DNA of 32,000 bases, taken from contig NZ_CP013213.1 of NCBI RefSeq assembly GCF_001545095.1, positions 420,001 to 452,000 of the forward strand, written 5' to 3'. The notes below the pieces were generated by a model that was given only the letters and a program-made list of their open reading frames with translations, did no database searches and was not told where the DNA came from. Position numbers and translations under genes: made by a program. The DNA is from Erysipelothrix larvae. GTDB taxonomy: Bacteria > Bacillota_I > Bacilli_A > Erysipelotrichales > Erysipelotrichaceae. Shown piece by piece: positions 3,338 through 29,373 of this stretch (position 1 is the stretch's first letter; each line of letters begins with the position of its first letter).

Positions 3338-3362
3338 ATAAGAAAACCAGCATACGCTGGTT
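3338..3362 (-). terminator. Intrinsic terminator of Mga-like paralog 2
   Basis: On the minus strand, aaccagc / gctggtt form a 7-bp stem with a 4-nt loop, followed by ttttctt. The stem overlaps the stop codon at 3361-3363. Confidence 0.6.
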
Positions 3363-5742: not shown

Positions 5743-6931
5743 ATTCGTCTGGATAGTGCTTCATAAAGTCGATTGCATCATCAAAATTAAGTGGCTTACT
5801 GAAGTAATACCCTTGGATAACATTACAGCTCTTATTTTTAAGCCAACTTACTTGGTGTTCAGTTTCGGCACCTTCCGCAACAATGTCAAGTCCTAACTCA
5901 TTTGCCATGGTAATGATACTGTTTAGGAAACGCTCATCCTTATTAATGTCGTCGATAAATGTTTTGTCTATTTTGAGAACATTGATATCCAGTTCGCGAA
6001 GGCGTAACATGGATGAATAGCCTCGACCATAATCGTCGATGTATGTTGTGATCCCTAACTCATTGAGTTCAGCAACACGTAATTTAAGCAAATCAATTGT
6101 ATCGTCAAATGTAGATTCAGTAATCTCAAAACCAAGTTGCTGAGGCGATACTTTATAAAATTCCAACAGTGTTGTGACATTGTGAATACAATCGGGATGT
6201 AAGACGTATTCATTGGGTGCATTGATTGACACAATGGGTTTGGAATAACCTTCTCGATTTAGTTTCTGAATAAACTCAAGGGCTTGTGTTAGAATCCAAC
6301 GTGTTAATGCGTTATAGTAGTCGGAGTTTTCTGCAATCTCGAAAATGAGTGGGGGTGGGATAAAGCCATACTCAGGATGAATCCAGCGTGTGAGAGCTTC
6401 AAATCCTACAATCTCATGGGAGTCTACATCAATTTGTGGTTGGAATACAACAAATAATTGATTTGAGAATCCTTGAACTGAAAGCAATCGTAAATCACGT
6501 TCAATCACTTGACGTCGTATGAGTTCTTGATGGATATCTTCGGTTACGATAATTTGTGATGTATCCGAAGCTTCTTTGAGTTGCATCGTGGTAACTTTAT
6601 AGGATTCAAACAGTGTATCAACACTGTCTACTTCTAAAATATCGGTAATATAAGTTGTTCTGAGTTCAAAGTTAAAGTCAACATCATTGATAACATCTTG
6701 AATTGATTTCAAGACTGCATCTTCATTTCGGTTGTGTGAAAGCATGAAGAATACATCATCTTGATAACGGTAGATTTCTTCACTCTCAGAATGTGTCTTC
6801 AAGATATCAACAAATCGTTTTAGGTTATCAATCAGCGTCTCATGTGTATTGAGAAGTTGCATCCGACGGAAGTTGGTGATCAAGAAAACTGAAACAGTCG
6901 TATGGGGGGTGCTATTGGTTTGTTGGAGCAT
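5741..6931 (-). CDS. c-di-GMP phosphodiesterase with an intact EAL domain preceded by a degenerate GGDEF-like domain
   Basis: EAL-domain motifs are all present: QPQID...GFEALTRW, SINAP, EITES, DDYGRGYSS, KIDKTFI, AEGAETEHQ, QGYYFSKP. The N-terminal ~130 aa resemble a GGDEF domain, but the signature is replaced (RYQDDVFFML in place of R.GGDEF). Confidence 0.85.
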   Translation of the reverse strand: MLQQTNSTPHTTVSVFLITNFRRMQLLNTHETLIDNLKRFVDILKTHSESEEIYRYQDDVFFMLSHNRNEDAVLKSIQDVINDVDFNFELRTTYITDILEVDSVDTLFESYKVTTMQLKEASDTSQIIVTEDIHQELIRRQVIERDLRLLSVQGFSNQLFVVFQPQIDVDSHEIVGFEALTRWIHPEYGFIPPPLIFEIAENSDYYNALTRWILTQALEFIQKLNREGYSKPIVSINAPNEYVLHPDCIHNVTTLLEFYKVSPQQLGFEITESTFDDTIDLLKLRVAELNELGITTYIDDYGRGYSSMLRLRELDINVLKIDKTFIDDINKDERFLNSIITMANELGLDIVAEGAETEHQVSWLKNKSCNVIQGYYFSKPLNFDDAIDFMKHYPDE

Positions 6932-7243
6932 ATCGTAATTTGAACGTTTTCTATTGGTTTGGTGGGGATAAGAGGGATTTTGGGTTCTAAGTTTGTGATT
7001 GTGTGTAGTGATAAGTCTTTTAGTGTTTGTGAATCGTTATCTTAGTAGAGGGCAGATACTCTTCGTGTTTTTTTTAATTTCGTATGCATGGTTTTTGTTG
7101 TCTGTATGTAGGGTTGGATGTATGTGCTTGAGGATAATGAGTAGGGGGTGTTGTCTCATTAAACGGTTTATTTTGTTATGGGTGTATAAGGTTACACATA
7201 ATTTAGTAGTGTGGAAAGAAATAATAATGGGGGGAAAACCAGT

Positions 7244-10200: not shown

Positions 10201-12304
10201 TGAAATAATCCAGTTGAATGATACAATCCGTAAGAACGACTTGGGAGATATAATATTATTTGCAGTGTGGGAGAAAATTCCTACCTATTCAATCACCTTT
10301 TTGATTGAAAAGACGGGTGGTGGGACGTTCATTAAGGATGAACAAAGTCTTGATACGATTCGTTTTGACGAAATCAAAATTGGTCAGAAGTTTAAAGATA
10401 TTGTGACTGAGTATCCTAAAGTACAGGCAGATGAGGATTATGTATTCTCACATTGGAGCTTTGATCAAGTAGAGGCCGAGCCGATGTATGTTCAACAAAA
10501 CCTTGTCGTTTATGCTCATTTTGTACAAACCAAGACGTTGGATTTAAGCTTAGTGACCCTGACGCCATCAACAAAGACATACAGTGAACAAGACCCAACT
10601 TATCAGGTTGAATGGCCCTTTGATGCACCACAGGAACATTTTGATTTTATCACCAATCGTGAAGCAGGTGAAACGGTACGCGAAACACCTTATGAAGTAA
10701 CACTCAGCATTCGACCAAAACCTCGATATGAACGATTTTATACAATGGTGAATGCCGTAGCACCAAGCACACTAAGTATTTTACCGTTAAATGTGAGTGT
10801 GAGTCCACAGGACAATGAGAAGACATATGGAATGGATGATCCAGAGATATTGAGTGCTGTATCTGTTGACTTTGAAGTGCTTGAGCATGCAATGGCTGAT
10901 TTTAAGAAACCTGAAGTTGTCTTCACGGTGGAGCGTGACATAGGAGAAAATGCGGGAGATTATGAAATCAACGTCCACCCAATCAGTGATCCAAATTATA
11001 CTTTCACAACCCATAAGGCAATCTTTAGGATTCACAAACAAACGACGCCTTTAGTCCTTGAAGCACCTAATCTATCAAAAATCTATGGAGATCCTGATCC
11101 GACTCAAACCGAACTAATAAAAGGTGTCACGGGTAAAAATCTTTCATTACGGGATACCTTTGAAGCACTGAAATTGAGTGTAAGTCGTGAGCCAGGAGAA
11201 GGGGCGAATGTTTATAAAACAACCGTGAATTTTGATCCAATTGTGTATGAAAATTATGCGAGTGTTGAAGTTGTAGATGGGACACTCACAATTGATAAAC
11301 GGAACATAACATTACATGTGGACAATCTCCCTCAAGGCGATACGGTATTGTATCAAGACAGCATATTACCGCCACTACGTGCAAGACTTGATCAAAACAC
11401 ACCTCTGGCATTCAATGATGAAGCCTTAAATTATGAAGTTTATCTTGTAGACTATGAGGGTTCATTTGACAAGATGACCTATGATATCAGTTGTCGGTTT
11501 GATCCTGAGGATTTAGTGAATCGAAATTATAATATTAAGGTGGTGAAGGGAACCTTAACCTTGCGTGAAAAACCTGTCGTTCCATCACCCCCTGAATCTT
11601 CAAAGGATCGTGAAGTTGGTCCAGAGAAAGTAAAACCACCTGTCCCAAATGTTCCAGAAACAGGTGAAGAAACAAACCAATCATCCAGCGAAAAAACTCC
11701 TGATTCTAAATCATATGAAACAACAAAAGAGCCGGATGTTCAAAAAGATGCTATAAGTCCTCCGGTGAATAAAGAGGCAGTGATTGAACACGGTAACAAA
11801 GGGGTAGTGATTGAACACGGTAACAAAGGGGAAGTGGTTGAACAAGGTAACAAAGATGCAGTGGTTGAACCTGGTAAAAAAGAAGAAGTGGTTGAACCTA
11901 GTAAAAAAGAGAATACGGTTCCCGTTGATCGTACCAGTGACCTCAATTTTACACAAAATACGACATGGTCGCTTGTGAATTTAGCGGTCGCACTGTGTAC
12001 TTTTATCTCAGCATGTCTTCTTGCACTAGGACTCATTAAACAAACAAAACTTAAGGGTGAATTGAGTGATGAAGACTCACCTACTATGTATTGGACCCAT
12101 GTCCGTACCTGGCAAATCTTATCAGTACTTGGTGGACTGAGTGCTGGAATTCTTTTTATCATCACACAAGATATGGTGGGTAAGATGGTATTGAGTGATC
12201 GATGGACCCCTTATATGGTAGCCTTATTGGGAATTCAAGGCGTATGTGGTTTAATTGGGTATCTAAAAAAGAAACGCGCACACGATTTGAATAACGAGAA
12301 ATAA
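7244..12304 (+). CDS. Giant (1686 aa) surface protein with a signal peptide, multiple Listeria-Bacteroides (Flg_new) repeats, MBG-type domains, a P/E/K-rich stalk with 9-aa tandem repeats, and a three-TM C-terminal anchor
   Basis: The ATG at 7244 is preceded by a GGGGGGA RBS. The signal peptide is MKDKRLSNVLVSCFMFLIMVASSISFFNVRAED. Flg_new-like units recur (F.GW...........(L/I)YA.W). MBG-like units are present (KTYGMDDPE, KIYGDPDPT, ...GDYEI...NYN...GTLTI). The C-terminus has three hydrophobic segments and no LPXTG. Confidence 0.85.
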   Translation: MKDKRLSNVLVSCFMFLIMVASSISFFNVRAEDVVCSELSPVEGFVKRETYARFFDENMEEYATKYLLEFYVQGRLNTTLSRVVEDGKPYTILERDLPKHESKCWRVIEVTRNFEASDVYGLGSVLTYSRDFRNVLIRLVPFDEPDHIVEHRVDFMVGQDVFTSIMVRDGNVVNMPKETPPKPNYKLQFKGWFIDEDLLIPFDSTEPIIGYLKLYAGFKNTFTVTFKDASGEVYDIREGEIGRGIDAPSQNPKSLVEGMDFQFWMNESDRSDAMVDFPLGVYKDITLIPYFSNESTVNFYSSNTLIDSQHVKVGESIQNFPTPQNEGYHFEGWGLKADASWENQEDFFDVTTPITSPIQLFAIWRPLIVSYRVDYYVEKLNFKGRPGTNLHNYQHTASVNIDESNSSVYAGTVIDGDQLRDYANQYFTDATNGTLGTHDVSSLNLDLLFSEFSFGASTIIQGDGSSIIQVYYTRIPLSVRFDLGSSFEAIEINGEVYHQSQSVYTLIAKYGQDISELFPGQSNVWNKDGNQFESWSVVGTQNAVGQDVKVLGSPSTFPYWLVPVNYETNRLITLKANVAVNSEQASRHVYVSVSEQHLKNVPISEVFELSQVEGLKVLAPHFIRHEGVTYEHVDKYDETFIVSNGLQSSSDALPVISGQTFHSSHIVNHVEMKRVSQFIFYTRDEVALHFDPMQGSLEPAEKVMAIPSGDTISQWLKDHEMDLPVPKHPKENHQFLGWYTTNNPNNALEFDPQSKMPTQKWTVFALYEPNVNSVEIYSSTLDGNYIDFQSINHGEPVKEISKFKKGYYYDGLGQFIGWGVYAPDLIQYNFNEAVYKDLQIYGMWKNNDFRITYDLGDGLGMAPVDTNTYQFNDRVSLPQRLDIRNSKGDCLVGWVDTKSNEFYDPDIRYRIQYDTIFKAVYLPQNSDVSTVEYHENNDSEGQRLTYVLLVNDVLNRTFDKGYFEREGYVQIGWSTTSSGPVDIGLYEIIQLNDTIRKNDLGDIILFAVWEKIPTYSITFLIEKTGGGTFIKDEQSLDTIRFDEIKIGQKFKDIVTEYPKVQADEDYVFSHWSFDQVEAEPMYVQQNLVVYAHFVQTKTLDLSLVTLTPSTKTYSEQDPTYQVEWPFDAPQEHFDFITNREAGETVRETPYEVTLSIRPKPRYERFYTMVNAVAPSTLSILPLNVSVSPQDNEKTYGMDDPEILSAVSVDFEVLEHAMADFKKPEVVFTVERDIGENAGDYEINVHPISDPNYTFTTHKAIFRIHKQTTPLVLEAPNLSKIYGDPDPTQTELIKGVTGKNLSLRDTFEALKLSVSREPGEGANVYKTTVNFDPIVYENYASVEVVDGTLTIDKRNITLHVDNLPQGDTVLYQDSILPPLRARLDQNTPLAFNDEALNYEVYLVDYEGSFDKMTYDISCRFDPEDLVNRNYNIKVVKGTLTLREKPVVPSPPESSKDREVGPEKVKPPVPNVPETGEETNQSSSEKTPDSKSYETTKEPDVQKDAISPPVNKEAVIEHGNKGVVIEHGNKGEVVEQGNKDAVVEPGKKEEVVEPSKKENTVPVDRTSDLNFTQNTTWSLVNLAVALCTFISACLLALGLIKQTKLKGELSDEDSPTMYWTHVRTWQILSVLGGLSAGILFIITQDMVGKMVLSDRWTPYMVALLGIQGVCGLIGYLKKKRAHDLNNEK
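11771..11905 (+). repeat. Five in-frame tandem copies of a 27-bp unit (9-aa repeat K-x-x-V-(I/V)-E-x-G-(N/K)) inside the giant surface protein gene
   Basis: Copies lie at 11771-11797, 11798-11824, 11825-11851, 11852-11878 and 11879-11905 (aaaggggtagtgattgaacacggtaac and variants). They translate as KEAVIEHGN KGVVIEHGN KGEVVEQGN KDAVVEPGK KEEVVEPSK. Confidence 0.9.
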
Positions 12305-12313
12305 AAAATAGTT

Positions 12314-12354
12314 AAAAAAAGAAAATGGCCGAAATTAAATTTGGCCATTTTTTT
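12314..12354. terminator. Bidirectional intrinsic terminator between the giant surface protein gene and Mga-like paralog 3
   Basis: aaaatggcc (12322-12330) pairs with ggccatttt (12343-12351). An A7 run lies upstream and a T7 run downstream. It sits exactly between the stops at 12304 (+) and 12353 (-). Confidence 0.7.
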
Positions 12355-13840
12355 AAGATTTATGCGTTGCGATATCAAGAATAAGATTACGCAAGTGCGT
12401 CCATTCCGCAAGATTGGGAATATAGGACAAGCGTACGACAGGACACGGGATATCTTCAGAATTGGGAATGTCATAATTCGCTACGACCAAATCAATCTGA
12501 TTGTCTTTGATTTTCTCAAAGGTAATGGGTTCATTGAAGATGTATTGTGGTTTTGTGGAATGTGGAATCATAAAATAGGTTGCTTGGATTAAGAAATCAT
12601 CATAACCCGGTTCTCCTTGAAAGGAGAATAAAATCTTCACTTCATTTTGTTTTAAATGACTCAACAAAGAGAAATGAAGCATAGCGAGTGCAGAGGCAAC
12701 ATCTTGAGTATTGGTGATTTCAAACACATCTTGAGCGTGTTTGGTTTTTAAATGTTCCATCCACGTTAAATAAAACTTGTTAATGGATTCTTTGGTAAAG
12801 ATTCGTGTTGCTAATGAGAGCTTTTGAAAAGAAGGGGAGATTTGCGATAAGGATCTAAGATTGATTAAGAACGAACGCATGTTTTCAATGTAGGCACTTG
12901 ACATTATTGATGCATCAAATTCTAAGGATAAAAAGTTATCGACGCGCTTTAAGAAGTCATCTGTTACTTCGCGGTGAAATACAAAGGTTTCATAATTCAA
13001 TTCACTATAGGAAACACAATGAAGCATGATTAAATAAAGCCATCGAATTTCATCTTCAGAAACATCATCCAGATTAAACTGATCTGAAAAAGCCTGTTGA
13101 ACACAGGTCTTGAATCCCTGATAATTATCCAAAGACTTGGATTCAATTGAATAGGGTGTTTTGATCGTTAAGGTGTTTTGAGTACTTAGGCGTTGTTTTA
13201 GAATCATAAACCACAAGGTTGTTCTAAAGTAATTGAGATGCAGCTTTTTACCATTATAATTGGATGCAGTTTCTAAAAGCAGTTGATAGGTTGGACTGTT
13301 TGTTTCATAGTCAGGATCGGTAACAGTTAGGTCGTTGAAGTCTGAATAAAAGGCATAGAAAAAGTAGCGAATATCCGATTCACCGCCTTTAAATTCTACA
13401 GTCGATGTGGACAGAGAAATATTAAATTGTTTCAATTCTTCATTAATATGGGATAAGGTGCGTTTTAGAGTAAAGGGTGAAATAAACAGGTTATAGGTTA
13501 GTTCATCAAAGGTATAAATTTCATTGTGAAAGAGCCCATCTATAATCTTATAAACATCAGTATTCTTTGCAAGTTCCATGGTAATTTTAGGGATTGAAAG
13601 TCCTTCAGGATAACTTAAAAAGTAACCGTTTTTCCCTAAGGATTCCACGCGCATATAGGGTGGGAGCTCTTCATTGAGTTCTCGAATGTCGGAACGAAGG
13701 GTTGGAATGGAACATTCAACGTGTTCTGCCAGTTCAATGATACTGACTGAAGAGTGCACTGAAGACAAGTAGTAAAGTACTTGGACTTTACGGCTGAATT
13801 GTTTGTTGTTGTTGAGCGCGTAGAATAAACGTTTAAACAT
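12353..13840 (-). CDS. Mga-family transcriptional regulator, paralog 3 (closest to paralog 2)
   Basis: The ORF is 495 aa and is preceded by AGGAGG. The HTH is VSIIELAEHVECSIPTLRSDIREL. By eye it is roughly half identical to 3361-4872. The two genes share a 17-nt identical DNA block, gtccattccgcaagatt (12399-12415 versus 3407-3423). Confidence 0.75.
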   Translation of the reverse strand: MFKRLFYALNNNKQFSRKVQVLYYLSSVHSSVSIIELAEHVECSIPTLRSDIRELNEELPPYMRVESLGKNGYFLSYPEGLSIPKITMELAKNTDVYKIIDGLFHNEIYTFDELTYNLFISPFTLKRTLSHINEELKQFNISLSTSTVEFKGGESDIRYFFYAFYSDFNDLTVTDPDYETNSPTYQLLLETASNYNGKKLHLNYFRTTLWFMILKQRLSTQNTLTIKTPYSIESKSLDNYQGFKTCVQQAFSDQFNLDDVSEDEIRWLYLIMLHCVSYSELNYETFVFHREVTDDFLKRVDNFLSLEFDASIMSSAYIENMRSFLINLRSLSQISPSFQKLSLATRIFTKESINKFYLTWMEHLKTKHAQDVFEITNTQDVASALAMLHFSLLSHLKQNEVKILFSFQGEPGYDDFLIQATYFMIPHSTKPQYIFNEPITFEKIKDNQIDLVVANYDIPNSEDIPCPVVRLSYIPNLAEWTHLRNLILDIATHKS

Positions 13841-14150: not shown

Positions 14151-16586
14151 ATGAAGAAACGATTCACAACAATGTTATTTCGAGGGCTACTGTGTTTCAT
14201 GATGGTGCTAACAAGTATCCCCTTTATTAATCCTCTAGATGTGGATGCCAGTTCGGTATCATCAAAAATCGATTACATGAACATCCACTATACGATGGGC
14301 TCATATAAGGGTCAACTGGGTCGCATCTATGTTGATAAACTTTTAGCTGTATGTATTGAACCAAGTACAGAGTTTATTGGGGGCGATTATGCGAAACACC
14401 CCATTAACAACAGTGGATTAAGTGAAACAAAACTAAAGAAGATTCGTCTGATTGATTACTATGGTAAACAGATGAACATGGCGGAGGATGACCATGTCTA
14501 TGCAACCGTACAATTGTATATTTGGGAAGTGATATCAGAGCGCATTGTATCGTCAATTAATGGAGACTTATCACTGATACACTATGAATCAATTAAAGAG
14601 CAAATCAATCGAAGCATTACGCGTCATGATATGATGCCTTCATTTCATAACAAAACATTCGAAGTTGAAGAAAACACGACCTTTGAACTGTTGGATACAA
14701 ACGCTGTGTTAAGTCAATTTGTTGTTACTTCGTCAAATCCAGAGGTTGCAACCCTGACGCAAAGCGGGAATAAGCTCATCATCAAGACACATAAAGAAGG
14801 AACCTTTGAACTAAAGGGGCAAAAAATCGATGCCAAGGATGTCGGTGACAGCTTTTCCTATTTAAAACCAGGACTTCAAACCTTAGCAACCCTAAAGTTG
14901 GATGATCCACTCAACCTTTTTGTATCCTTCACATCAACCACATCAAATGAATCCTTTGAGTTAACAAAACTGGATGATCAAGGAAATGTTGTGGAAGGGG
15001 CAGTGTTTGACATTGGGGGAATTAAATATACCACCAACAAAAACGGTAAAATTCTAATATCAGATCTCAAACCCCAGACCTTAACCTATCAAGAAACCTT
15101 TGTACCCGATCCTTTAATCGTGGATCATAAAACCTACGAAGTGAGCATTGAAAAAGGAAAGACAGCCCTTGTTTCTGTGGAAAATAAGACCGCAACTGGA
15201 AAAATCACGCTGAAAAAAACCACTGAAGATGGAAACGGTGTTGAAGGGGTACGCTTTGGAATTTATCGCAATCAAATTGAAATCATGCAAGTAATTACAA
15301 ATTCAAAAGGAGAAGCACAAAGCAGTGCTTTACCATTGGGTGAGTATGAAGTGATTGAATTAAGTGTTCCTGATTATCTCATCCTCGATCAAACACCACG
15401 AAAAGCAGTGCTTTCCTATAAAGACCAAGACACGCCCATTGTGTATGCGCACATCGATATCACCAATTTGTATCGACCGGTCGCAACAATCAGCACCTCA
15501 CGCATTCGTATCGATACTCAAAAGGCTGAGGATGGTTTGCTTGTTGAAGCTTGGTTTTCAAAAACCATGCATTATCACGATGCAGTCAATGACTTTAAAG
15601 AAACCACTGTACGGGTAGAAGTGGTGAATCAGACTTATCAATCCATAGTTTATTCCCAAGAGTACACGGTGCTAAGTTTACCTGATTTTGATGTTTATCA
15701 GCTTCCATCTCACATTCAAGGCATTGATGAATCGCATCACTATGAAGTGAGATTGTCGACTCAAGAAAGTCATAAAGTAACCCTTGAACACCCATCCATC
15801 AATACCTTAGGGGTTACTGCATCCCAACAATCCATGTTTGAAAACAGCCAAGATACCCCGACACTGTATGTTGAAGGGATTGTTCGTACAGAACGCTATC
15901 AAGGGCAAAGCATGCTGATGTATTTTGAGCGCTTTGAAATAACAGTTCCCCAAATGGATGCATTGATTGCAGGACGGGGATTTGCTTATGATGTCACAAC
16001 ATCGTATTCCAATGACCTAAACAAAACAACACAGGTTAGCCTTACCCTCATGGCGCATAATGAACTGGTGGATGGGGATTGGTATGCGCGCACGGCTTCG
16101 ATGGCGATGATTCCTTTAGAAAATAAAGGAACAATGCATCAGGTACCGCGTGTGTATGCCTATAAAGATATCAGTGGCGCACTTATTAATGAAACGACGT
16201 ATCAAACCCTGACACAACAACAAAAAGAACAATACCGGGATGGGGGTCATCAAATCTTGACACCCCTGTGGTCTTCTGACTTGGGAATTTATCATCTGAA
16301 ACTTGTATCAGATCCAATTGGGGTTCATGAAATTACAGTTACCTTTAGTGATCAAATCGAATTGTATGCGTATCTGTTTGGGTGGGAAAATGATGAAGGC
16401 CCTTCACCAACAATCAAATCAGACCAAGTGTTGGTATCTCCAATATACAGTGCTGATGCGAATCAAAATGGCACCCTTGATGTATGGGAAGACACACCGA
16501 TGCCAGACAATTGGGGGATCACGCAAAAGGATGGATCAAGGACCTTATCCATCGCCGAGAAACAGTTTTTAGACCTTAACAATTAA
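14151..16586 (+). CDS. Secreted 811-aa adhesin-like protein with a signal peptide, a possible thioester (TQXA-like) domain, two SpaA/Cna-B-type Ig-like domains and a ~350-aa C-terminal region of unknown fold; no sorting signal
   Basis: The ATG at 14151 is preceded by AAAGGA. The signal peptide is MKKRFTTMLFRGLLCFMMVLTSIPFINPLDVDA/SS. Possible thioester motifs are AVCIEP (Cys codon 14352-14354) and TVQLYIW (Gln codon 14511-14513). Cna-B/SpaA-like units are FELTKLDDQGNVVEGAVFDI... and GKITLKKTTEDGNGVEGVRFGIY...LPLGEYEVIELSVPDYLI. There is no LPXTG or C-terminal TM segment. Confidence 0.7.
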   Translation: MKKRFTTMLFRGLLCFMMVLTSIPFINPLDVDASSVSSKIDYMNIHYTMGSYKGQLGRIYVDKLLAVCIEPSTEFIGGDYAKHPINNSGLSETKLKKIRLIDYYGKQMNMAEDDHVYATVQLYIWEVISERIVSSINGDLSLIHYESIKEQINRSITRHDMMPSFHNKTFEVEENTTFELLDTNAVLSQFVVTSSNPEVATLTQSGNKLIIKTHKEGTFELKGQKIDAKDVGDSFSYLKPGLQTLATLKLDDPLNLFVSFTSTTSNESFELTKLDDQGNVVEGAVFDIGGIKYTTNKNGKILISDLKPQTLTYQETFVPDPLIVDHKTYEVSIEKGKTALVSVENKTATGKITLKKTTEDGNGVEGVRFGIYRNQIEIMQVITNSKGEAQSSALPLGEYEVIELSVPDYLILDQTPRKAVLSYKDQDTPIVYAHIDITNLYRPVATISTSRIRIDTQKAEDGLLVEAWFSKTMHYHDAVNDFKETTVRVEVVNQTYQSIVYSQEYTVLSLPDFDVYQLPSHIQGIDESHHYEVRLSTQESHKVTLEHPSINTLGVTASQQSMFENSQDTPTLYVEGIVRTERYQGQSMLMYFERFEITVPQMDALIAGRGFAYDVTTSYSNDLNKTTQVSLTLMAHNELVDGDWYARTASMAMIPLENKGTMHQVPRVYAYKDISGALINETTYQTLTQQQKEQYRDGGHQILTPLWSSDLGIYHLKLVSDPIGVHEITVTFSDQIELYAYLFGWENDEGPSPTIKSDQVLVSPIYSADANQNGTLDVWEDTPMPDNWGITQKDGSRTLSIAEKQFLDLNN

Positions 16587-16613: not shown

Positions 16614-17060
16614 ATGAGAAAATACTTCATAACATTTCTAGTCTTTGGGTGTGGAATGGCGCTGTTTTTCATGCTGTATCAATACAATATGAAGTCAATT
16701 AAACGTGATGGGGTGATGGAAACTCTGGAAAGAACCAGTGAAGTTGCGTATATCAATGCTTTGGATGGATCATATCGAATCACCAAAGGATCCATGAATA
16801 TCACAAGTCAAGAAACCTATGAAACGATATTTAAAGAGATCTTTCTTAACGACTCCACGGTTAATCTTGATCAAGAACACGTCATCTTTGCCTTTGAGTA
16901 CTTAGTTGAACTTGAAGATGGCACAACACTGAATACCGCATTACCCCAACAATTCATTCACCAAGGTGGCGTTGTGAAGGGGATTCGAAATACAGTATGG
17001 GTAGATGGTCAAGATTATTCGGTACGCTATATCTTAGATATATCGAAAGGGCGTGAATAA
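16614..17060 (+). CDS. Small membrane-anchored protein (148 aa), a possible pilus assembly factor or minor pilin-like protein
   Basis: AAGGAAG RBS. An N-terminal TM helix (YFITFLVFGCGMALFFMLY) is followed by a ~120-aa soluble domain. The gene sits immediately upstream of, and is coupled to, the secretion ATPase gene. Confidence 0.5.
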   Translation: MRKYFITFLVFGCGMALFFMLYQYNMKSIKRDGVMETLERTSEVAYINALDGSYRITKGSMNITSQETYETIFKEIFLNDSTVNLDQEHVIFAFEYLVELEDGTTLNTALPQQFIHQGGVVKGIRNTVWVDGQDYSVRYILDISKGRE

Positions 17061-17063
17061 ATT

Positions 17064-18317
17064 TTGTTCAAAAGCAAATCAAACCATGAAACCATTCAAT
17101 CCAATGCCGACATCGGTGGCATGATGGCTGTGATTGAAGATTCCATTAACACAGATTATCCAGAACTATCTGTTAAAGCACTTTTTGATAAACAGGCAAG
17201 AGAAACCTTGCGCATCAACCTCATTAAGGATCATAAGGGTCGATTAAGTGAAGACGCATCCCACCGTATCTTATCCGAGATTGTTGGACTGGGCTTTTTT
17301 GAAGAACTTATCAAAGATGAATCCATTACAGATATTGGCTATAACGGAACGGATTTATGGGTCAAGACCAGTGATACAAAACGCCGCATGCATCACCCTG
17401 ATCTCAATGAAGCCTATATCCTAAAGATCATTCAACGGTTCTCAAATTATGTCCATCAAGAGTTTTCTGAGAAATCACCGATATTAAATGCCCAATTGGA
17501 TAACATACGCATTAATGCAATCCACCGCAAACTCTCACCAACAGGGACTACTATGTCCATGCGCCATGCCCGAAATCGCCTCGTATTAACACACGAAAAC
17601 TGGCACCAATTTGCCCATGATGCAGTGTTTGATCTACTGGATTTATGTCTAAAAATTGGCATCAACCTTGTGATTACAGGGGAAGTTGGAACGGGGAAAA
17701 CTGAACTTCAAAAGCTGTTGATTGGTTCAATTCCTGATGACTTTAAATTGATTATGGTAGAAGATACCTTGGAAACACATCTTAAGGATATTTATCCTGA
17801 TAAAGATATCTTGTCATGGCTTGTTGCACCAGGGTTTAGTCACACTCAGTTTATTAAAGAAGCCCTTCGAAATGACCCAGTCTATACAGTGTTATCCGAA
17901 GCACGCGATCACGCAATCTATGAAATCCATCAATCCGTGTTATCGGGACACAAGATACTATTAACGGCCCATTCCGTGAATGCTCGCGCATTTATCCCAC
18001 GCATGATTGGGATGACTAAACAAAAGTTTCACGTCGATGAAGCTTCCTTGAAACAAGAAATCCTGCGTTACTATGATTTTGGCATTCATTTGGATAAACG
18101 CACGGTGCATGGGAAAACCCTGCGATTCATTTCAGAAGTTGTGGAATATACCGATGCAGGACTTCAGACCTTGTATTCAAAGGATGTCACCATTGATCCA
18201 CAAACCCAACACCTCAGTGAAACCCAACAGTTTTATCCACTTTCAGATGCGATGGTTGATCGCTTATATAAATATGGTTATTCACCACAATGGAATGAGC
18301 GAATCAAAGAGAGGTGA
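17064..18317 (+). CDS. Type II/IV secretion-system ATPase of the CpaF/TadA (T2SSE) type
   Basis: Walker A is VITGEVGTGKTELQKLL, the Asp box is LIMVEDTLE, the Walker B-like motif is TVLSEARD and the His box is ILLTAHS. The N-terminal domain contains ITDIGYNGTDLWV. The start is uncertain: TTG at 17064, 3 nt after the upstream stop, or ATG at 17121. Confidence 0.85.
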   Translation: MFKSKSNHETIQSNADIGGMMAVIEDSINTDYPELSVKALFDKQARETLRINLIKDHKGRLSEDASHRILSEIVGLGFFEELIKDESITDIGYNGTDLWVKTSDTKRRMHHPDLNEAYILKIIQRFSNYVHQEFSEKSPILNAQLDNIRINAIHRKLSPTGTTMSMRHARNRLVLTHENWHQFAHDAVFDLLDLCLKIGINLVITGEVGTGKTELQKLLIGSIPDDFKLIMVEDTLETHLKDIYPDKDILSWLVAPGFSHTQFIKEALRNDPVYTVLSEARDHAIYEIHQSVLSGHKILLTAHSVNARAFIPRMIGMTKQKFHVDEASLKQEILRYYDFGIHLDKRTVHGKTLRFISEVVEYTDAGLQTLYSKDVTIDPQTQHLSETQQFYPLSDAMVDRLYKYGYSPQWNERIKER

Positions 18318-18323
18318 TGTTTG

Positions 18324-19127
18324 ATGAAACAGGTGATGAATATTGACCAACTCAATGCCATTCACATGAACTATGAAGCAAAACTCACACGGAAGCACAT
18401 CGCAAAGATGCTGATATTCCCCACACTGTATGTCCCAACTTTATTATTCACAATCTTCTTAAGGTGGTGGTTAATCCCAATTGGGTTACTTGCAGGATTA
18501 GTGTATGGGGGATTGGTGATGTTGCCTTTAATCATCACAGCAAACTACCAAAACAGAGCATTTAAAGAACGCAATCGATTTGTCAATAACTTAGCACAAA
18601 GCTTACATCGAAAAAATATCACGATCTTGGATGCACTGCGTGAAGTCTCAACCCATCGTTTAAAGGGAGAGTTAAAAAATGATGTGGATGTCTTGGCGTA
18701 TCATGTCGCCATACACGATACCAAAACACGTAAAAATGCGTATCAAGCGTTGATTCAGAAATATGAACACGATCGACTCTTTGTGCAATTTATTGAACAT
18801 GTAATAACGGTAGACTTGAACGGACTTGATTCACTACAACCCTTGAATGAAACAGCACAATCACACGACAAAGCTCTGTTATGGCAAGAACACTTTATTG
18901 ATTCAAAGAAGCAATCGCTCATTTATTTTATCACCAATAATGTACTGGCGTTTTGCTTGTGTGTGGCTGTTATTTGGCTGACGTGGGATAACTACATAGA
19001 ATGGTTTGTGAAAACACCAGTTGGGTGGGTGTTTGGCTCACTTTATCTTTGTTTGACCTTCTTTTATAACCATCGCTTTGTTGTTGATTACTTTGATGAA
19101 TCAATCATGGAGGTGAAGGTCAAGTGA
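18324..19127 (+). CDS. TadB-like inner-membrane platform protein (T2SSF-like topology)
   Basis: The ATG at 18324 is preceded by GAGGTG. Two N-terminal TM helices are followed by a ~130-aa helical cytoplasmic domain and two C-terminal TM helices. The gene lies directly downstream of the ATPase. The family call rests on topology and synteny, not on a motif match. Confidence 0.55.
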   Translation: MKQVMNIDQLNAIHMNYEAKLTRKHIAKMLIFPTLYVPTLLFTIFLRWWLIPIGLLAGLVYGGLVMLPLIITANYQNRAFKERNRFVNNLAQSLHRKNITILDALREVSTHRLKGELKNDVDVLAYHVAIHDTKTRKNAYQALIQKYEHDRLFVQFIEHVITVDLNGLDSLQPLNETAQSHDKALLWQEHFIDSKKQSLIYFITNNVLAFCLCVAVIWLTWDNYIEWFVKTPVGWVFGSLYLCLTFFYNHRFVVDYFDESIMEVKVK

Positions 19128-19861
19128 AACAATCGTTTGGGTTGTCGCTTTTACCCCAAGAGATCGTGCAAAAGAAACATGAAATGGGAACAACCTATCA
19201 TAAAATTGCATCGTGGAGTCTCAAAATGCACTGTGGTCTTGTGGGAATCTTAGTGTGTGCAGGATGGATCGCGGTTCAAACATCCATGAAAGGGGTCGCG
19301 TGTGGTCTTGTGTTATCAGTGGTATTATTGCGAGCCTTAATGCTCTTCAATGTGAGACAAGCGTACCAAGGGTTTCGAGACGCGCGCAATGTAGAGTTTC
19401 TCTATTTCTTCAGTCTTTTAGTTCCACACCTCTCACAAGCGGTTGGTGTAAAAACTGGATTGTATCGGATTCTCACAAAGCTTGAGATACGCCTTGAAGA
19501 TCAAAGCATCTTGAAACAAGGTGTGAATCGTTTGGTCATCCAGATGACCAATCACCCGGGAAATATTGAACCCTTCCTCGAGTTCGCCCGCCTTTGTTCA
19601 GGGACTGAACTTGCGGAAGATGTTGCGGTCGCGCTGTTTGACTTCCAACAAAACAGTGATGACCAAGAGGCCATAAATCGCCTTAAAGATAAAGTTAATA
19701 AAGCACTGGATAAGCGCATGGAGGATGTTGTAACGCGAAAGATATCACGATTCCGATGGTATTCATCGCGTGTGGTGATGTCAGTATTCGTCCTCATTCT
19801 TGGCATTTTAGGAACCTCCATTTGGGCAGAAATTATGCGTGCATTCAGTGTCATTAAATAG
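19124..19861 (+). CDS. TadC-like inner-membrane platform protein (T2SSF-like topology)
   Basis: The GTG start overlaps the upstream stop (GTGA), with GGAGG about 11 nt upstream. Two N-terminal TM helices are followed by a ~130-aa cytoplasmic domain and a C-terminal TM helix (VVMSVFVLILGILGTSIW). It is the second platform paralog, as in Tad loci. Confidence 0.55.
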   Translation: MKQSFGLSLLPQEIVQKKHEMGTTYHKIASWSLKMHCGLVGILVCAGWIAVQTSMKGVACGLVLSVVLLRALMLFNVRQAYQGFRDARNVEFLYFFSLLVPHLSQAVGVKTGLYRILTKLEIRLEDQSILKQGVNRLVIQMTNHPGNIEPFLEFARLCSGTELAEDVAVALFDFQQNSDDQEAINRLKDKVNKALDKRMEDVVTRKISRFRWYSSRVVMSVFVLILGILGTSIWAEIMRAFSVIK

Positions 19862-19871
19862 GAGGAACGCC

Positions 19872-20237
19872 ATGTTTAAAGCAGAAAAATCAGTCGTAGT
19901 TGATTTTCTTACGGTGTTTATATGGGGAATGATTACAATTTTTATGGTTGTATTTCTCATTGTGTTTAAACAAGTCTCCGACAATAATCACTTCAGTGCC
20001 TATGCCAGCAGTGTCATTTCACGCCATGGTGGCTTAACGCAAAAGGCTAAATCTGTCATTGACGCTTATAGTGAAAACCACTACAACGGTCGTTATTTTA
20101 TTGAAAGCGAGATTCAAGAGGCGCAACACTATGGAACACCGCTAACCTTTATCATCTCAAATAACACAAAGGTTTTGTATTTTGATATTCCCATACGCAT
20201 TCAGTTTAGTGGCTCTGCCACATCGAGGATTCGGTGA
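19872..20237 (+). CDS. Pseudopilin-like protein (121 aa; TadE/TadF-like size and topology) with N-terminal MFKAEK followed by a TM helix
   Basis: AGGAGG lies 8 nt upstream of the ATG at 19872; the track start at 19839 is an in-frame GTG within the preceding gene. The N-terminus is MFKAEKSVVVDFLTVFIWGMITIFMVVFLIVF, followed by a ~85-aa beta-rich domain. Confidence 0.6.
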   Translation: MFKAEKSVVVDFLTVFIWGMITIFMVVFLIVFKQVSDNNHFSAYASSVISRHGGLTQKAKSVIDAYSENHYNGRYFIESEIQEAQHYGTPLTFIISNNTKVLYFDIPIRIQFSGSATSRIR

Positions 20238-20377
20238 TGTTTAATGCAGAGAAACAAACAGCCTATGAGCTGGTCATGATTTTGTATTATGTGGGAATCT
20301 TTATTACCGTGATTACAGTTGTATGGGGTTTGTTTGACCAAACCATCATGATTGAACACCCATATCACTTATTTTAA
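20237..20377 (+). CDS. Unlisted 46-aa mini-pilin-like membrane protein (MFNAEK followed by a TM helix)
   Basis: This ORF is not in the supplied track because it is under 60 aa. Its ATG overlaps the upstream TGA (TGATG). The translation is MFNAEKQTAYELVMILYYVGIFITVITVVWGLFDQTIMIEHPYHLF, with a TAA stop at 20375-20377. It shares the F-x-AEK-plus-TM pattern with both neighbours. Confidence 0.55.
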   Translation: MFNAEKQTAYELVMILYYVGIFITVITVVWGLFDQTIMIEHPYHLF

Positions 20378-20382
20378 AAAAC

Positions 20383-20619
20383 ATGAAAGGAACCAATAAC
20401 CAAATGAACAAACAAACAGTAAATCAAAAATCAAACGAAATGAAGGGATGTTTCTATGCAGAAAAAGAACAAACGAACACATTAGTTGGGATTATCTTTA
20501 TTCTCGCGATCGCAGTTGGAGTCGGAACTATTTTTCTCTCATCGTTTCCAAAAATTGGTGATCAAGTTATTGAAACAGTTGAACGCCAATTTAACCGCAT
20601 TGAATCAGGCAATGACTAA
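20383..20619 (+). CDS. Flp-like prepilin candidate (78 aa) with a polar N/Q/K-rich leader ending in Gly, then CFYAEK and a TM helix
   Basis: MKGTNNQMNKQTVNQKSNEMKG / CFYAEKEQTNTLVGIIFILAIAVGVGTIFLSSF... The pattern G-XXXX-E resembles the Flp processing motif G/XXXXEY. The predicted mature size of ~56 aa is typical of Flp pilins. An alternative start is the ATG at 20440 (MKGCFYAEK). Confidence 0.55.
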   Translation: MKGTNNQMNKQTVNQKSNEMKGCFYAEKEQTNTLVGIIFILAIAVGVGTIFLSSFPKIGDQVIETVERQFNRIESGND

Positions 20620-21166
20620 CAGTGTCGCTTTAAAACTCAAGAAACGCTTGAGTCAATTGGTTTCAAATCCACGGCTTATTGATGACTTTAATATCTGTGT
20701 GGATTTGATGGTAGATGAAGGGTGTACAGTCCTACACCTCTTTGAATTGTTTCATGAGTTTGGCCATTATTGTAAGTGTATTGAACGAAACGGAACTGTG
20801 ACTCTGATTCAAGTGTCGCAGTTCATCTTTCTATTTAAAGACGATGCAATCACCCTAAACATCACCACACAACAATCCCAATCCTTCATTCTATGCACAC
20901 TTCCATTTGATGATCACCTATTAGAAAATCTACGCGCAGTATGTTATGAAGGGATGGTGTTTAGTCAAGCATGTATTCTCTACTGTTTTCCTTCCCTAAA
21001 AGCATGGGTCTTTAATGTGGTAAATGCGCCAAAATGGCCCTTTTATCGAAAAGGCAGTGATGCATATCTGTATCACAAGGGATTAAAGACACTAAAAGAT
21101 GCCCATCATTTTAATACCAATGCGCACCGCGAAACACTTAAAATAAGAGGTATGGATGGGTTATGA
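20612..21166 (+). CDS. Soluble Cys/His-rich 184-aa protein with an HExxH motif (HEFGH), last gene of the Tad-like operon
   Basis: The ATG at 20612 overlaps the preceding gene by 8 nt; the track TTG start at 20486 would run through the pilin gene. HEFGHYCKC is encoded at 20753-20767 onward. No TM segment or signal peptide is present. Confidence 0.5.
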   Translation: MTNSVALKLKKRLSQLVSNPRLIDDFNICVDLMVDEGCTVLHLFELFHEFGHYCKCIERNGTVTLIQVSQFIFLFKDDAITLNITTQQSQSFILCTLPFDDHLLENLRAVCYEGMVFSQACILYCFPSLKAWVFNVVNAPKWPFYRKGSDAYLYHKGLKTLKDAHHFNTNAHRETLKIRGMDGL

Positions 21167-21221: not shown

Positions 21222-21253
21222 AAGTCTAGAGAAAAAGAGAGACAGTGGTGGAT

Positions 21254-21847
21254 ATGATTGTAATAGAGAATGAAACAATTTATCAAAAAGAAGCGTTAGA
21301 AGATACACATTATCGAAATTGCGAGATTCGTTTTGAAGACACAGAACACTTTATTCGAAATGTTGTCTTCGAACGGTGTACCTTTATCTATGGTGACAAG
21401 CACAAATGGGACATCCGAGACTGTACCTTTAAAAATTGTGATTTATCATTGGGAGGGTTTGAAGACAGTTATTTAATGAATGTTACCTTTGATTATTGCA
21501 AGTTGATGAGTTTTAGTCTGCATCAATGTTACCTGCATAACCTTTTGATCTCGAATTCAATGGGTCAATATTTTGGAATATCAGATTCTAAAATACGCAG
21601 TGCAACGTTTAAAAGCACACCGTTTCACACCGCGTCTTTCATGCATTTAGATCATAAAAACATGACGTTTCATGAGTGTCGTTTGGATGAATGTAACTTT
21701 GAGGAGACCCGCTTGAAGGGAATTGACCTTCGAAGTTGTGAGTTCAGCTATATTTTATATTCACCCCACTTGGTCAAAGGATTGAAGATTCGTTCGGATC
21801 AGGCAATCATCTTCGCAATCCAAATGGGCTTGGAAGTGGATTACTAA
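21254..21847 (+). CDS. Pentapeptide-repeat protein (197 aa)
   Basis: A quasi-periodic 5-residue pattern with a central F/L/C runs through most of the protein (CEIRFEDTEHFIRNVVFERCTFIYGD...DCTFKNCDLSLGGFEDSYLMNVTFDYCKLMSFSLHQCYLHNL; ECRLDECNFEETRLKGIDLRSCEF). The start could be GTG at 21245 or ATG at 21254. Confidence 0.7.
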   Translation: MIVIENETIYQKEALEDTHYRNCEIRFEDTEHFIRNVVFERCTFIYGDKHKWDIRDCTFKNCDLSLGGFEDSYLMNVTFDYCKLMSFSLHQCYLHNLLISNSMGQYFGISDSKIRSATFKSTPFHTASFMHLDHKNMTFHECRLDECNFEETRLKGIDLRSCEFSYILYSPHLVKGLKIRSDQAIIFAIQMGLEVDY

Positions 21848-27111: not shown

Positions 27112-29373
27112 CTATGCCCCTTTTTTATGTTTCTTCGAATGAAGAATGTCAGTGCGAATTGCGAATATTAAGAGTGCTGCGGCAACGAGAATCACCAATA
27201 CTTTCATCGCAATTTGCTGTGTTGTTTGTGAATTTTGAATGTGAATTAAGTCGTTGTTGATGGATTGGTCACTATTTTGACTGGTTGTGTCATATTTCGC
27301 GACAAGGACAATCGGTTCTTGAACGCGGTAAGTTTCGACATCAATGGGTGTGTCATCAATGAACCATCCGATAAATGCATAACCTTCATGTGGTGTGACA
27401 TACGGTCTTGAAGTCAAGAGATGATCTTTTGGATATAAAAACGTTTCATATTCAATAGTTCCATGCTCACCGCAGTCAAACGTCACACTGATGAGTTGAT
27501 TGGTTAACAGATTTGCATGTGACTCACCAACACTCAAGGATAAACCGCCAATGGTGTAAACTGCGTTAAGGGTTGTATCTTGTGTAAATTGGTAAGTGTT
27601 TAGATCAAGGAGTCGGTCTTCATAAGCCCACCCTTTAAATACAACAGACTCATCAATGACATCAACATTTGGGATTTGGGTTAGTGTTTCCCCTGAATAC
27701 AGTTCGTAGGTAGGCAAACTTGCGAGCTTTCCATGCATTCCGGGATCAAATGTGATGGTAATTAAGTGTCTTTGTGTCCATTGCGCGTACAGTGTTGTAT
27801 CTTGGATAATGCGTAATTGATCACTTAAACGATATTCTGTGCCACTGCCATCTTTGGCGGTGTTGAAGTGCGTCAAGGTTGAACCTTCAAGCTTCTGTAA
27901 GAAGGATTGAAGGGTAATTGTTTGCGCTTTATTAAGATTAAAGGTTGATACGTCAGTCTCAGAATTTGGATGATTCCAATAAATGGTCAGTTTAGCTGTT
28001 TGCGCGCTCCATTGTGCATATAACGTGGTCGGTGTGTTCAGTGAAATTTGCGCACCAGGCATATAGGATGTGCCACTGCCATCAGCTCGTGTATTCCAAC
28101 CCGTGAAGGTTAAGTTCCCATGTGTCATTTGCCCAGGTGGCTTAATGGATACAAGGGCACCACTCACAAATTGATTGGGTTCGATGGGTTGGTTTGACCC
28201 CCCATTTGCATCATAGGTTAATGCATATAAATCTTGAGCACTAATCATGATGTTATTGGAGGTTCCAGACCCCAAAGAGTAGCTCAGTATCCCATTATTT
28301 ACAGACGATTTAACGCGATAGGTTAATAGTACTGTGACCAATCTTCCCGCACTCAGTGGTCCTAAAGAAACGCTTTGTTTATTGGACGAAAGGGACACGC
28401 TGGTATCATTTGAACTCGCATTTAATAGCTCAAGTGCGTTATGAGTTGGGATCGTAATGACAGGATTGTTGTCACTTTGTGGGAGTCGAACATCTAATTT
28501 TACAGTGAATGAATTCGACGGATTCAAACTCAGGTTTTGAGACCATGTTGCGCCATTATCTGCTGAAGTATACGCATTGAGTGTGGGGTTTTGAGTGGGT
28601 GTTTTAATCATCGAAACACTTTGTGTGTTTGTCTTTGACGATGTTGCACCACTAAATCCCCAATAGACATTATCGCCATTAAAAATAGATTGATAATCTG
28701 ATAGTGAATGGATCTGTTGTCCAAATCCTTCCACAGTATAAATGAGTTGTTTTGTTTGTGCATTCCATCGCACATTCACTGTACGGGTTTTTCCATCCGC
28801 TAAAATGTTTGTTGGACTGAATTGAACGTTGTAATGATTGGTTGTTTTCTTTGAAGGAATGGTGATTGCAATGTGACCGGTTTTTGAACTGTTTACCGTG
28901 TTATTAACTGAGATATCCGATACACCAAAATCATGGATATCGGTATTGTTGTAGTGGGTGTCAAATTCGAGTGCCAAAGAGTTTTCAATGAAAGTTCCAG
29001 TGCTGCTGCATTGATAAACGCCAAGACATTCACCGCCATCACCCGTTGCATTTCTTCCCCGTCGGTCATTGTGTAAGATAAATGCAATCCCTTCACCACC
29101 ATCTGGTTGATTGCCTAAGTTCACTGCAAAAGATAAATCAAAATCAAAGTTTAAGTTGAGTGTCTCTGAAGCAAAAATGGCACCTGTTTGACTGGCTGTA
29201 TTGCTTGTAAGCGTAACTGTGTTACCGGCATTAAGACTCCTAAAAAAAGAATAATTGGTTCTTGAGTTACGACCAATATCCGCATGGATTGTGGCACCAT
29301 TTAAGATCAATAGTGCACAAGATATGCTCAAAATGAGGAGTATTTTTTTTGTTTTACATTCGTAATTTCTCAT
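27112..29373 (-). CDS. Surface protein (753 aa) with a signal peptide, a legume(L)-type lectin-like domain, a beta-rich middle region, Listeria-Bacteroides (Flg_new) repeats and a C-terminal TM anchor
   Basis: The signal peptide is KKILLILSISCALLILNGATIHA. The lectin-like block is ASQTGAIFASETLNLNFDFDLSFAVNLG...GGEGIAFILHN...NSLALEFDTHYN. Flg_new units are YALTYDANGG...FTGWNTRADGSGTSY...LYAQW, repeated. The C-terminus is VLVILVAAALLIFAI followed by HSKKHKKGA. Confidence 0.8.
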   Translation of the reverse strand: MRNYECKTKKILLILSISCALLILNGATIHADIGRNSRTNYSFFRSLNAGNTVTLTSNTASQTGAIFASETLNLNFDFDLSFAVNLGNQPDGGEGIAFILHNDRRGRNATGDGGECLGVYQCSSTGTFIENSLALEFDTHYNNTDIHDFGVSDISVNNTVNSSKTGHIAITIPSKKTTNHYNVQFSPTNILADGKTRTVNVRWNAQTKQLIYTVEGFGQQIHSLSDYQSIFNGDNVYWGFSGATSSKTNTQSVSMIKTPTQNPTLNAYTSADNGATWSQNLSLNPSNSFTVKLDVRLPQSDNNPVITIPTHNALELLNASSNDTSVSLSSNKQSVSLGPLSAGRLVTVLLTYRVKSSVNNGILSYSLGSGTSNNIMISAQDLYALTYDANGGSNQPIEPNQFVSGALVSIKPPGQMTHGNLTFTGWNTRADGSGTSYMPGAQISLNTPTTLYAQWSAQTAKLTIYWNHPNSETDVSTFNLNKAQTITLQSFLQKLEGSTLTHFNTAKDGSGTEYRLSDQLRIIQDTTLYAQWTQRHLITITFDPGMHGKLASLPTYELYSGETLTQIPNVDVIDESVVFKGWAYEDRLLDLNTYQFTQDTTLNAVYTIGGLSLSVGESHANLLTNQLISVTFDCGEHGTIEYETFLYPKDHLLTSRPYVTPHEGYAFIGWFIDDTPIDVETYRVQEPIVLVAKYDTTSQNSDQSINNDLIHIQNSQTTQQIAMKVLVILVAAALLIFAIRTDILHSKKHKKGA

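Follow-up and report, generated by a model that had tools for sequence, protein, structure and literature searches.

A Tad-like gene module with three small membrane proteins sharing an [AG]-E-K motif in Erysipelothrix larvae

A 32-kb stretch of the Erysipelothrix larvae chromosome (the window, to which coordinates refer unless another locus is named) carries a set of genes that are tightly packed on the forward strand, abutting or overlapping throughout from 16614 to 21166, with an adhesin gene 27 nucleotides (nt) upstream of the block; this packing identifies them as one operon. In order, the operon encodes the adhesin, a pXO2-26-like protein, a secretion ATPase, two polytopic membrane proteins, three small proteins of 121, 46, and 78 amino acids (aa), and a protein with an HExxH motif. 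The three small proteins share an acidic N-terminal motif, and on balance the evidence favors viewing them as filament or pseudopilus subunits, that is, as pilin-like substrates of a Tad-type module, a reading held here with moderate confidence. As a type IV filament system it would be Tad-like; its locus lacks a peptidase gene, and the subunit N termini are atypical. It is a lineage-specific variant of a widespread gene set that is functionally undescribed in the literature searched, in which no publication was found that reads the module as a pilus system or that deals with DUF4320, the family to which the largest of the small proteins appears to be related.

The shared motif and its position

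The first of the three small genes (19872–20237) begins with MFKAEK behind a GGAGG 6 nt upstream. Its TGA is overlapped by the ATG of the second (20237–20377), which has a GAGG 8 nt upstream and encodes MFNAEK, five polar residues, and a membrane helix; as noted in a preliminary description of this DNA, the sole other in-frame start is a GTG at 20234, behind a TAG at 20207. The third gene (20383–20619) encodes a polar leader ending in NEMKG (Gly22), followed by CFYAEK-EQTNT, a membrane helix, and an FPxIGD tail. Its start codon is uncertain and may be the ATG at 20383, 20404, or 20440. Each of the three proteins has one strong hydrophobic 19-mer (mean Kyte-Doolittle value 2.4–2.8), and in an independent assembly (Logan, SRR6161627) all three genes are called with the same lengths. 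The idea that the third is a frameshifted, formerly leaderless MFYAEK gene was considered and dropped, as a homologous leader is encoded downstream of a strong AGGAGG in a related locus (L003) and the independent assembly gives the same sequence. An out-of-frame ATGTTT one base upstream of the C-F-Y codons opens a 37-aa open reading frame (20448–20561) and resembles a vestigial leaderless MF.AEK start; given the homologous L003 leader with its strong ribosome-binding site, the resemblance is probably coincidental.

The sequence F-x-A-E-K, to which the preliminary description had drawn attention in these consecutive proteins, occurs as F-K-A-E-K (19875–19889), F-N-A-E-K (20240–20254), and, internally, F-Y-A-E-K (20452–20466). 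A six-frame translation of the window contains F.AEK only at these three genes, compared with a mean of 0.14 matches in mononucleotide shuffles of the window and about 0.002 expected in 245 residues from amino acid composition. Unchanged residues are spelled by different synonymous codons (gca/gct/gcg, gaa/gag, aaa/aag, ttt/ttc) among the copies and relatives, so the motif is conserved at the level of the protein.

Comparison of the window with the lineages closest to E. larvae, in which the ATPase is 58–65% identical (loci L003/L010, L005, and L018), delimits what is kept. The 121-aa protein begins with MFKAEK in L003/L010 as in the window, with MLKAEK in L005, and with MLKGEK in L018. The 46-aa protein has clear homologues in L003, L005, and L018; it begins with MFSGEK in L003/L010 (from a GTG with AGGAGG 8 nt upstream) and with MRAEK in L018, and in L005 it reads MPMIKRKRRVDNFIALQH-AEK, a leader followed by LQHAEK, with an AGGAGG before the start. 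The leader-CFYAEK region of the 78-aa protein corresponds to MFKKLLKKLNGLVIRKKVQMEGVAV-FSAEK in L003/L010 (AGGAGG 6 nt before the ATG) and to ...LCLLSK and ...LLFLSK in two L005 paralogues; the L018 contig ends here. In these alignments the conserved core is [AG]-E-K, common to four related lineages. The Gly preceding the motif in the 78-aa protein of the window is not kept in register.

The position of the motif is fixed with respect to the membrane. In every case, in all three proteins and with or without a leader, the Glu lies 7 residues from the first residue of the membrane helix; the distance of the motif from the N terminus and from any Gly is variable. All four lineages have Glu as residue 5 of the 121-aa protein, and the window and L003 have it there in the 46-aa protein too; in the 46-aa homologues it is residue 4 in L018 and internal in L005, and Ser replaces it in the two L005 paralogues. 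In the 78-aa protein of the window Glu stands exactly 5 residues past Gly22; in the L003 homologue a Gly is found 7 residues before Glu, and the L005 46-aa homologue has an 18-aa leader without Gly. The L005 paralogues belong to a group of three small genes at L005 6418–7123 whose products carry long basic leaders (67, 64, and 57 aa); the motif Glu has been lost from two of the three (…LCLLSKTNPVLG, …LLFLSKTNTLVG).

The polar spacer noticed earlier between Glu and the helix of the 78-aa protein is a feature of the motif in general, as the Glu sits inside a polar, charged stretch of about 10–11 residues ahead of the hydrophobic helix. Two hallmarks of Flp-type prepilins were not found. Glu is not inside a hydrophobic N-terminal helix, and there is no short basic leader ending in Gly (or Ala/Ser) at −1 directly before the hydrophobic segment, as the 121- and 46-aa proteins have no leader at all and 11 mostly polar residues (CFYAEKEQTNT) separate Gly22 from the helix in the 78-aa protein. 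The leaderless character attributed to two of the subunits holds more widely, with most of the wider family starting directly with Met and having no removable leader.

In relatives whose ATPase identity is 49% or less the motif is absent. The N terminus of the 121-aa family is nearly always M-[LQ]-[ED]-x-x-[IV]-M-E, without a leader, and the homologues of genes 40 and 41 of plasmid pLS20, which correspond to the 121- and 78-aa proteins, both start with M-[LQ]-[DE] in the five other plasmid lineages where both can be read. These N termini are, for gene 40 and gene 41, respectively, MLDGAVM and MLDQNADR in pLS20, MLDSSIM and MLENNVFR in pXO2, MQEQSVM and a pair of sequences (MQENNVSR and MLDQNTDR) in Enterococcus faecium pZA1, MLEGTTME and MLDQNTTR in Listeria (the former from the close homologue P0155, as the annotated start in L016 gives MELSKIF), and MLEGSIM and MLDQNTDR in Paraclostridium. 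Judged from these sequences, the motif is restricted to one small clade, and [AG]EK is the lineage-specific counterpart of M-[LQ]-[DE]. Such a concerted N-terminal difference between clades across all three proteins argues for a shared partner.

Motor, platform, and partner proteins

The putative motor is a CpaF/TadA/VirB11-type secretion ATPase (17064–18317), identical to AOC36_02040 of E. larvae and the counterpart of pLS20 gene 37. Its match to Pfam T2SSE (1.5e-16) and its best PDB match, CpaF (9e-15), place it in the PilB/TadA/CpaF family characteristic of Tad-type assembly systems; it lies below the cut-off of every NCBIfam equivalog. The 268-aa polytopic protein that follows (18321–19127, counterpart of pLS20 gene 38) has the PilC/GspF (T2SSF) fold, with one domain of the PilC/GspF/TadB type. 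A full phmmer search returned 85 relatives, and T2SSF is matched by 13 of the 66 that were scanned against Pfam (best 2.1e-9). The top Foldseek matches in the PDB for its AlphaFold2 model (predicted local distance difference test score, pLDDT, 95; predicted template modeling score 0.89) are the cytoplasmic domains of PilC, EpsF, OutF, and SpoIIIAB, with probabilities of 0.98–1.0, target-normalized template modeling (TM) scores of 0.66–0.78, and root mean square deviations of about 3 Å. A direct hhalign comparison of the 268-aa family with one PilC-like protein from L001 reached a probability of only 32%.

The second polytopic protein, of 245 aa (19124–19861, counterpart of pLS20 gene 39), is probably a distant paralogue of the first, the two forming a TadB/TadC-like pair. 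It joins this T2SSF-fold platform only through its profile-profile link to the gene-38 family, for which hhalign gives a probability of 60% and an E value of 8.4e-5 over 149 columns. Profiles of both membrane proteins found nothing among PDB sequences, scans of metagenomes and viruses with the 245-aa family found nothing, and a scan of a genome collection with the ATPase found only an unrelated type II/IV locus of WOR-1. Within the type IV filament superfamily, a T2SSE-family ATPase together with a pair of T2SSF-like proteins of one domain each corresponds to the layout of Tad or archaeal systems, which is not that of VirB11-containing type IV secretion (Denise et al. 2019, PMC6668835).

Besides the ATPase family and the pair of single-domain platform proteins, the E. 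larvae module resembles the Tad/Flp (type IVc) pilus in its very small hydrophobic subunits, sometimes encoded in tandem, and in a protein of about 120 aa, modeled as helix plus sheet, in the position of the minor pilins. The Tad/Flp pilus is made by TadA/CpaF, TadB, TadC, Flp, TadE/TadF, and TadV. Unlike it, the E. larvae module has no TadV/A24 peptidase gene, no G/XXXXEY site, no TadZ, and no Pfam Flp or TadE match, and its acidic residue stands in a polar tail rather than at position 5 of a hydrophobic mature N terminus. The Com pseudopilus (ComGA-GG with ComC) offers another parallel, as a wall-spanning type IV filament of monoderm bacteria with small pilin-like proteins, an ATPase, and a T2SSF platform, the fibre being presumed in the case of E. 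larvae. However, ComGB has two T2SSF domains, and ComC processes the ComG pilins at leaders of the canonical class III type. Only weak similarity to the Com ATPase was found (NCBIfam ComGA, 6e-11); the other Com proteins were not compared directly.

The 121-aa protein corresponds to pLS20 gene 40 and is a candidate for a minor pilin-like subunit. It belongs to a family that in a profile search has at least 120 cluster representatives, including pXO2-21. A profile was needed, as a search with the single sequence found one relative only; with the window protein included, the profile recovers pXO2-21 at 4.8e-44. The window protein itself has no match to DUF4320 (PF14208), for which 33 of 69 homologues give sub-threshold matches (best 1.4e-5), and several homologues are named DUF4320 by NCBI/UniRef, as is the E. 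larvae protein itself by UniRef. Sequence comparison makes the protein a probable divergent DUF4320/pXO2-21 homologue. Its AlphaFold2 model, built from a 69-sequence alignment (pLDDT 87), has a helix at residues 8–52, a second helix at 57–71, and a three-stranded sheet, which in outline is a pilin-like lollipop; the first modeled helix spans 45 residues, a long N-terminal helix having been named in the preliminary description as typical of pilins. A profile of the family found nothing among PDB sequences.

Three further proteins complete the operon. The first is the secreted adhesin (14151–16586), identified by its domain matches and the literature as the counterpart of pLS20 gene 34 (TIE; PMC8092201). 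A signal peptide at the N terminus and a DUF8345/PXO2_28_C module at the C terminus accompany SpaA and thioester-like domains; there is neither an LPXTG motif nor a C-terminal membrane helix. Adhesins encoded 5' of the ATPase in relatives (L003, 3772–7497; L006, 5144–7495; L013, 2832–5294; L019, 1–1922) likewise end in DUF8345/PXO2_28_C, and none of the five proteins compared has LPXTG. Their N-terminal adhesive domains are swapped, comprising SpaA/thioester, Flg_new (Listeria-Bacteroides repeats), TED_2, and antigen I/II C2 types. This constancy of the C-terminal module behind exchanged N-terminal domains suggests that the adhesin docks to the module by its C terminus.

The second is the 148-aa bitopic protein (16614–17060, counterpart of pLS20 gene 36 and pXO2-26), which has a basic N terminus, one membrane helix, and an extracellular domain. 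The acidic motif is absent from it, and profile comparison detects no relation between its pXO2-26-like family and the 121-aa family. The third, encoded by the last gene of the operon (20609–21166), is a soluble 185-aa protein with the HExxH sequence HEFGH, which forms, with EGMxFSQ and WPFYRKGSDxYLY, blocks that are invariant between it and its homologues in L003 and L010 (36–37% identity). No match to it was found in Pfam, NCBIfam, or the PDB, including a profile search of PDB sequences. Because its gene is seen only in the window, L003, and L010, all of them loci with leader-bearing small subunits, one may speculate, purely as conjecture, that it is a cytoplasmic metalloprotease removing the leader.

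The module in relatives and its setting in E. larvae

The gene order described above recurs in the metagenomic contigs L003, L005, L006, L011, L013, L018, and L019 (ATPase homologues 36–65% identical) and in L009, as it does in pLS20, pXO2, and plasmids of Listeria and E. faecium. ATPase homologues in that range of identity are also found in 285 plasmid records, 224 of them typed conjugative, which include pLS20, pXO2, and plasmids of Listeria, Enterococcus, and Paraclostridium. Homology and conserved order assign the E. larvae operon to the pLS20/pXO2 type of module, its direct homologues being pLS20 genes 34–41, pXO2 (approximately pXO2-20 to -28), pAW63/pBT9727, and the Listeria/Enterococcus clusters. 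In the loci that extend far enough, genes for VirB6-like, VirB4, VirD4, VirB2-like, and hydrolase proteins lie 3' of the module. The E. larvae module differs in being chromosomal, with no VirB4, VirD4, VirB6, or VirB2-like gene after it or elsewhere within the 32-kb window and no linkage there to a relaxase gene, and in having [AG]EK instead of M-[LQ]-[DE], one leader-bearing small subunit, and the extra HExxH protein.

Two of the small proteins have recognizable places in this scheme. The 46-aa protein occupies the slot of a 48-aa protein after the gene-40 homologue in pXO2 and the E. faecium plasmids. The 78-aa protein, the candidate major subunit, aligns with the gene-41 proteins of about 47 aa (MLDQN[AT]DR, helix, FPE-type tail), whose genes are repeated in tandem two or three times in pLS20, L006, and L009; the E. 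faecium plasmid L017 has two of them. A third 47-aa gene-41 copy in pLS20 (L008, 9163–9336), outside the gene table given for that locus, has ATA for ATG (…RD-I-LDQNADR…) directly behind a GGGGGTGAGGG site, and would use either a non-standard start codon or a 10-residue leader from an upstream TTG.

VirB2/TrbC pilins, like the proteins considered here, are small hydrophobic proteins of conjugation clusters. In pXO2, E. faecium, L006, and L019, however, a separate VirB2-like gene lies just downstream; the VirB2-like protein of the relatives has two membrane helices, whereas the three E. larvae proteins have one and no VirB2 match. After the VirB2-like gene stands a gene of the pLS20 gene 46 type (L006, 12410–13681; L008, 10460–11917; L009, 10390–11838), whose product contains extended arrays of very regular, charged tandem repeats (KKKKLELKLKQEEEE or AEAERARQAEEKARQEA) ahead of a C-terminal membrane helix.

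In the pLS20 literature, genes 36 and 38–41 are listed as "Unknown," gene 37 as "VirB11," gene 40 as encoding 120 aa, and gene 41 as encoding 47 aa (PMC8557374). Efficient conjugation of pLS20 in liquid requires the TIE adhesin, which is not anchored by sortase; the study describing the adhesin leaves open what keeps it attached to the cell (PMC8092201). A mutational study of the lactococcal plasmid pUC11B was considered and set aside, as it concerns another cluster.

Around the operon, the E. larvae region looks like a surface-protein island. Very large surface proteins are encoded at 7211–12304, at 27112–29373, and from about 29770 onward, and three regulators of the Mga/AcpB/EbpR type (1103–2611 on the forward strand; 3361–4872 and 12353–13840 on the reverse strand) and an EAL-domain protein (5741–6931, reverse strand) are found nearby. 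Directly after the operon, where relatives carry type IV secretion genes, lies a gene for a pentapeptide-repeat protein (21245–21847), followed by RlmN. A promoter scan was uninformative, promoter-like sites being no commoner than in shuffled sequence, and a terminator scan showed no terminator-like site at any operon boundary.

Competing readings and their consequences

Taken as an assembly system, the module would work as follows. A CpaF/TadA-like ATPase would act as motor with two single-domain T2SSF-type platform proteins, and the 121-, 46-, and 78-aa proteins would insert in the membrane with their short polar N-terminal tails in the cytoplasm. The platform would lift these subunits out and stack them into a short fibre or pseudopilus across the thick cell wall, and this fibre may carry or expose the co-encoded, sortase-signal-free adhesin via its conserved C-terminal domain. 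The [AG]-E-K motif would then be a juxtamembrane cytoplasmic recognition tag for the shared machinery, and not the Glu5 of a mature N terminus, replacing in the E. larvae lineage the M-[LQ]-[DE] N terminus of most relatives. In relatives the module is part of gene clusters for conjugative type IV secretion like those of pLS20, pXO2, and pAW63; the E. larvae chromosome carries it on its own, probably because it was retained for adhesion.

Several results weigh against subunits of a filament. The pilin-like nature proposed in the preliminary description gains from the location of the small genes behind a CpaF/TadA-type ATPase and a PilC/GspF-fold protein and from their tandem arrangement in relatives, but it finds no echo in pilin families: the three proteins match none in Pfam or NCBIfam, and neither they nor their homologues from L003, pLS20, pXO2, and E. 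faecium match Flp_Fap, Flp1_like, TadE, N_methyl, or Class_IIIsignal at E values up to 5. Foldseek gives no significant PDB match for the 121-aa model. The N-terminal 10–11 residues, polar and charged, do not resemble the start of a mature type IV pilin and could hardly be accommodated in a filament core without being removed, and the absence of a prepilin peptidase gene claimed at the outset extends from the window to the related loci, no A24 gene being present in the 14 of them that have gene calls or annotation. For the motor, NCBIfam scores VirB11 (84 bits) about as high as the TadA family (82 bits), neither score coming near its cut-off, and the 245-aa protein has no T2SSF match of its own. 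Nor is the shared acidic N terminus universal in the family. In L019, from one widespread E. faecium lineage, the small proteins lack it (those at 2329–2472 and 6374–6526 begin with MNTIVGVG and MKSIGKIL, and the gene-40 homologue with MGAEDEF), and in L011 the motif is missing and no small genes stand directly behind the gene-40 homologue. Finally, the pLS20 literature holds that Gram-positive conjugation systems form no pili (PMC8557374).

Much of this would be expected if the three proteins were ordinary small bitopic subunits, non-polymerising, that are accessory to or stabilize the ATPase-membrane complex or the channel of a conjugative type IV secretion system, with the motif as a membrane-proximal contact site. 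The missing matches to pilin families and pilin structures, the polar charged N termini, and the lack of a peptidase gene all accord with such a role, as do the treatment of the ATPase in the literature as VirB11, a type IV secretion component, and the embedding of the module in a type IV secretion cluster in most relatives. Yet VirB11 systems have no T2SSF-type partner, and the 268-aa protein has precisely that fold; the module is intact in E. larvae with no type IV secretion gene in the window; the tandem multiplication of the gene of about 47 aa suggests a bulk structural subunit; and the helix-plus-sheet layout of the 121-aa model is pilin-like. An accessory role is therefore regarded as the strongest competitor and, all told, as rather unlikely.

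A more conventional pilin assignment fares worse. On that view the 78-aa protein would be a prepilin of the canonical class III (Flp-like) type, and a host A24 peptidase whose gene lies elsewhere would remove its leader after Gly22, making Glu residue 5; the other two proteins would be leaderless mimics of the mature form that have Met at +1. The class III rule that the preliminary description had applied to this protein does describe the window, in which Gly22 at −1 puts Glu at +5. A Gly also lies 5–7 residues upstream of E/S-K in all leader-bearing 78-aa homologues, a cut assumed one residue before the F/L position would be preceded by a small residue in all three leader-bearing homologues (G in the window, A in both L003 and L005), and prepilin peptidases can be encoded elsewhere and shared between systems (PMC6668835). 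The rule does not survive comparison, however: Gly is out of register in L003 and missing from the L005 46-aa homologue, MRAEK in L018 puts Glu at +4, and two L005 paralogues have no Glu. Most of the family has neither leader nor Gly, and mobile relatives would depend on the peptidase of each new host. Because the register of Gly fails, the Glu lies outside the hydrophobic segment, and neither an A24 gene nor a pilin match was found, this assignment is improbable.

One could also dismiss the shared hexapeptide as a coincidental repeat, or as a signal in the nucleotide sequence (a translation-initiation context, for instance), with no role in the protein, but this is hardly credible: two of the three copies do lie at start codons in A-rich DNA, but three copies against an expectation of about 0.002, the internal position in the 78-aa protein, its L003 homologue, and the L005 46-aa homologue, and the retention of residues through synonymous codon changes all speak against it.

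If the three proteins are indeed pilin-like substrates of a Tad-type module, a broader proposal can be put forward, as no more than a tentative one that is itself rather doubtful. The modules of pLS20, pXO2, pAW63, and the Listeria and Enterococcus plasmids may belong to a widespread Gram-positive class of type IV filaments whose subunits lack a cleavable class III signal and which need no prepilin peptidase, the fibre anchoring the sortase-independent thioester adhesin and so being in effect a conjugative pilus, which E. larvae would have domesticated as a chromosomal adhesion organelle. To our knowledge, subunit maturation in every known type IV filament system is the task of a dedicated prepilin peptidase, and textbooks, like the pLS20 literature, describe Gram-positive conjugation as working without pili. 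If the small proteins are fibre subunits, a large family of conjugative plasmids in Bacillus, Listeria, Enterococcus, and clostridia would carry an unrecognized pilus-like organelle, and the question of how the pLS20 adhesin is retained on the donor surface would have an answer that is concrete and open to testing. There would likewise be an exception to the rule that defines type IV pilins by a class III signal peptide with Glu5.

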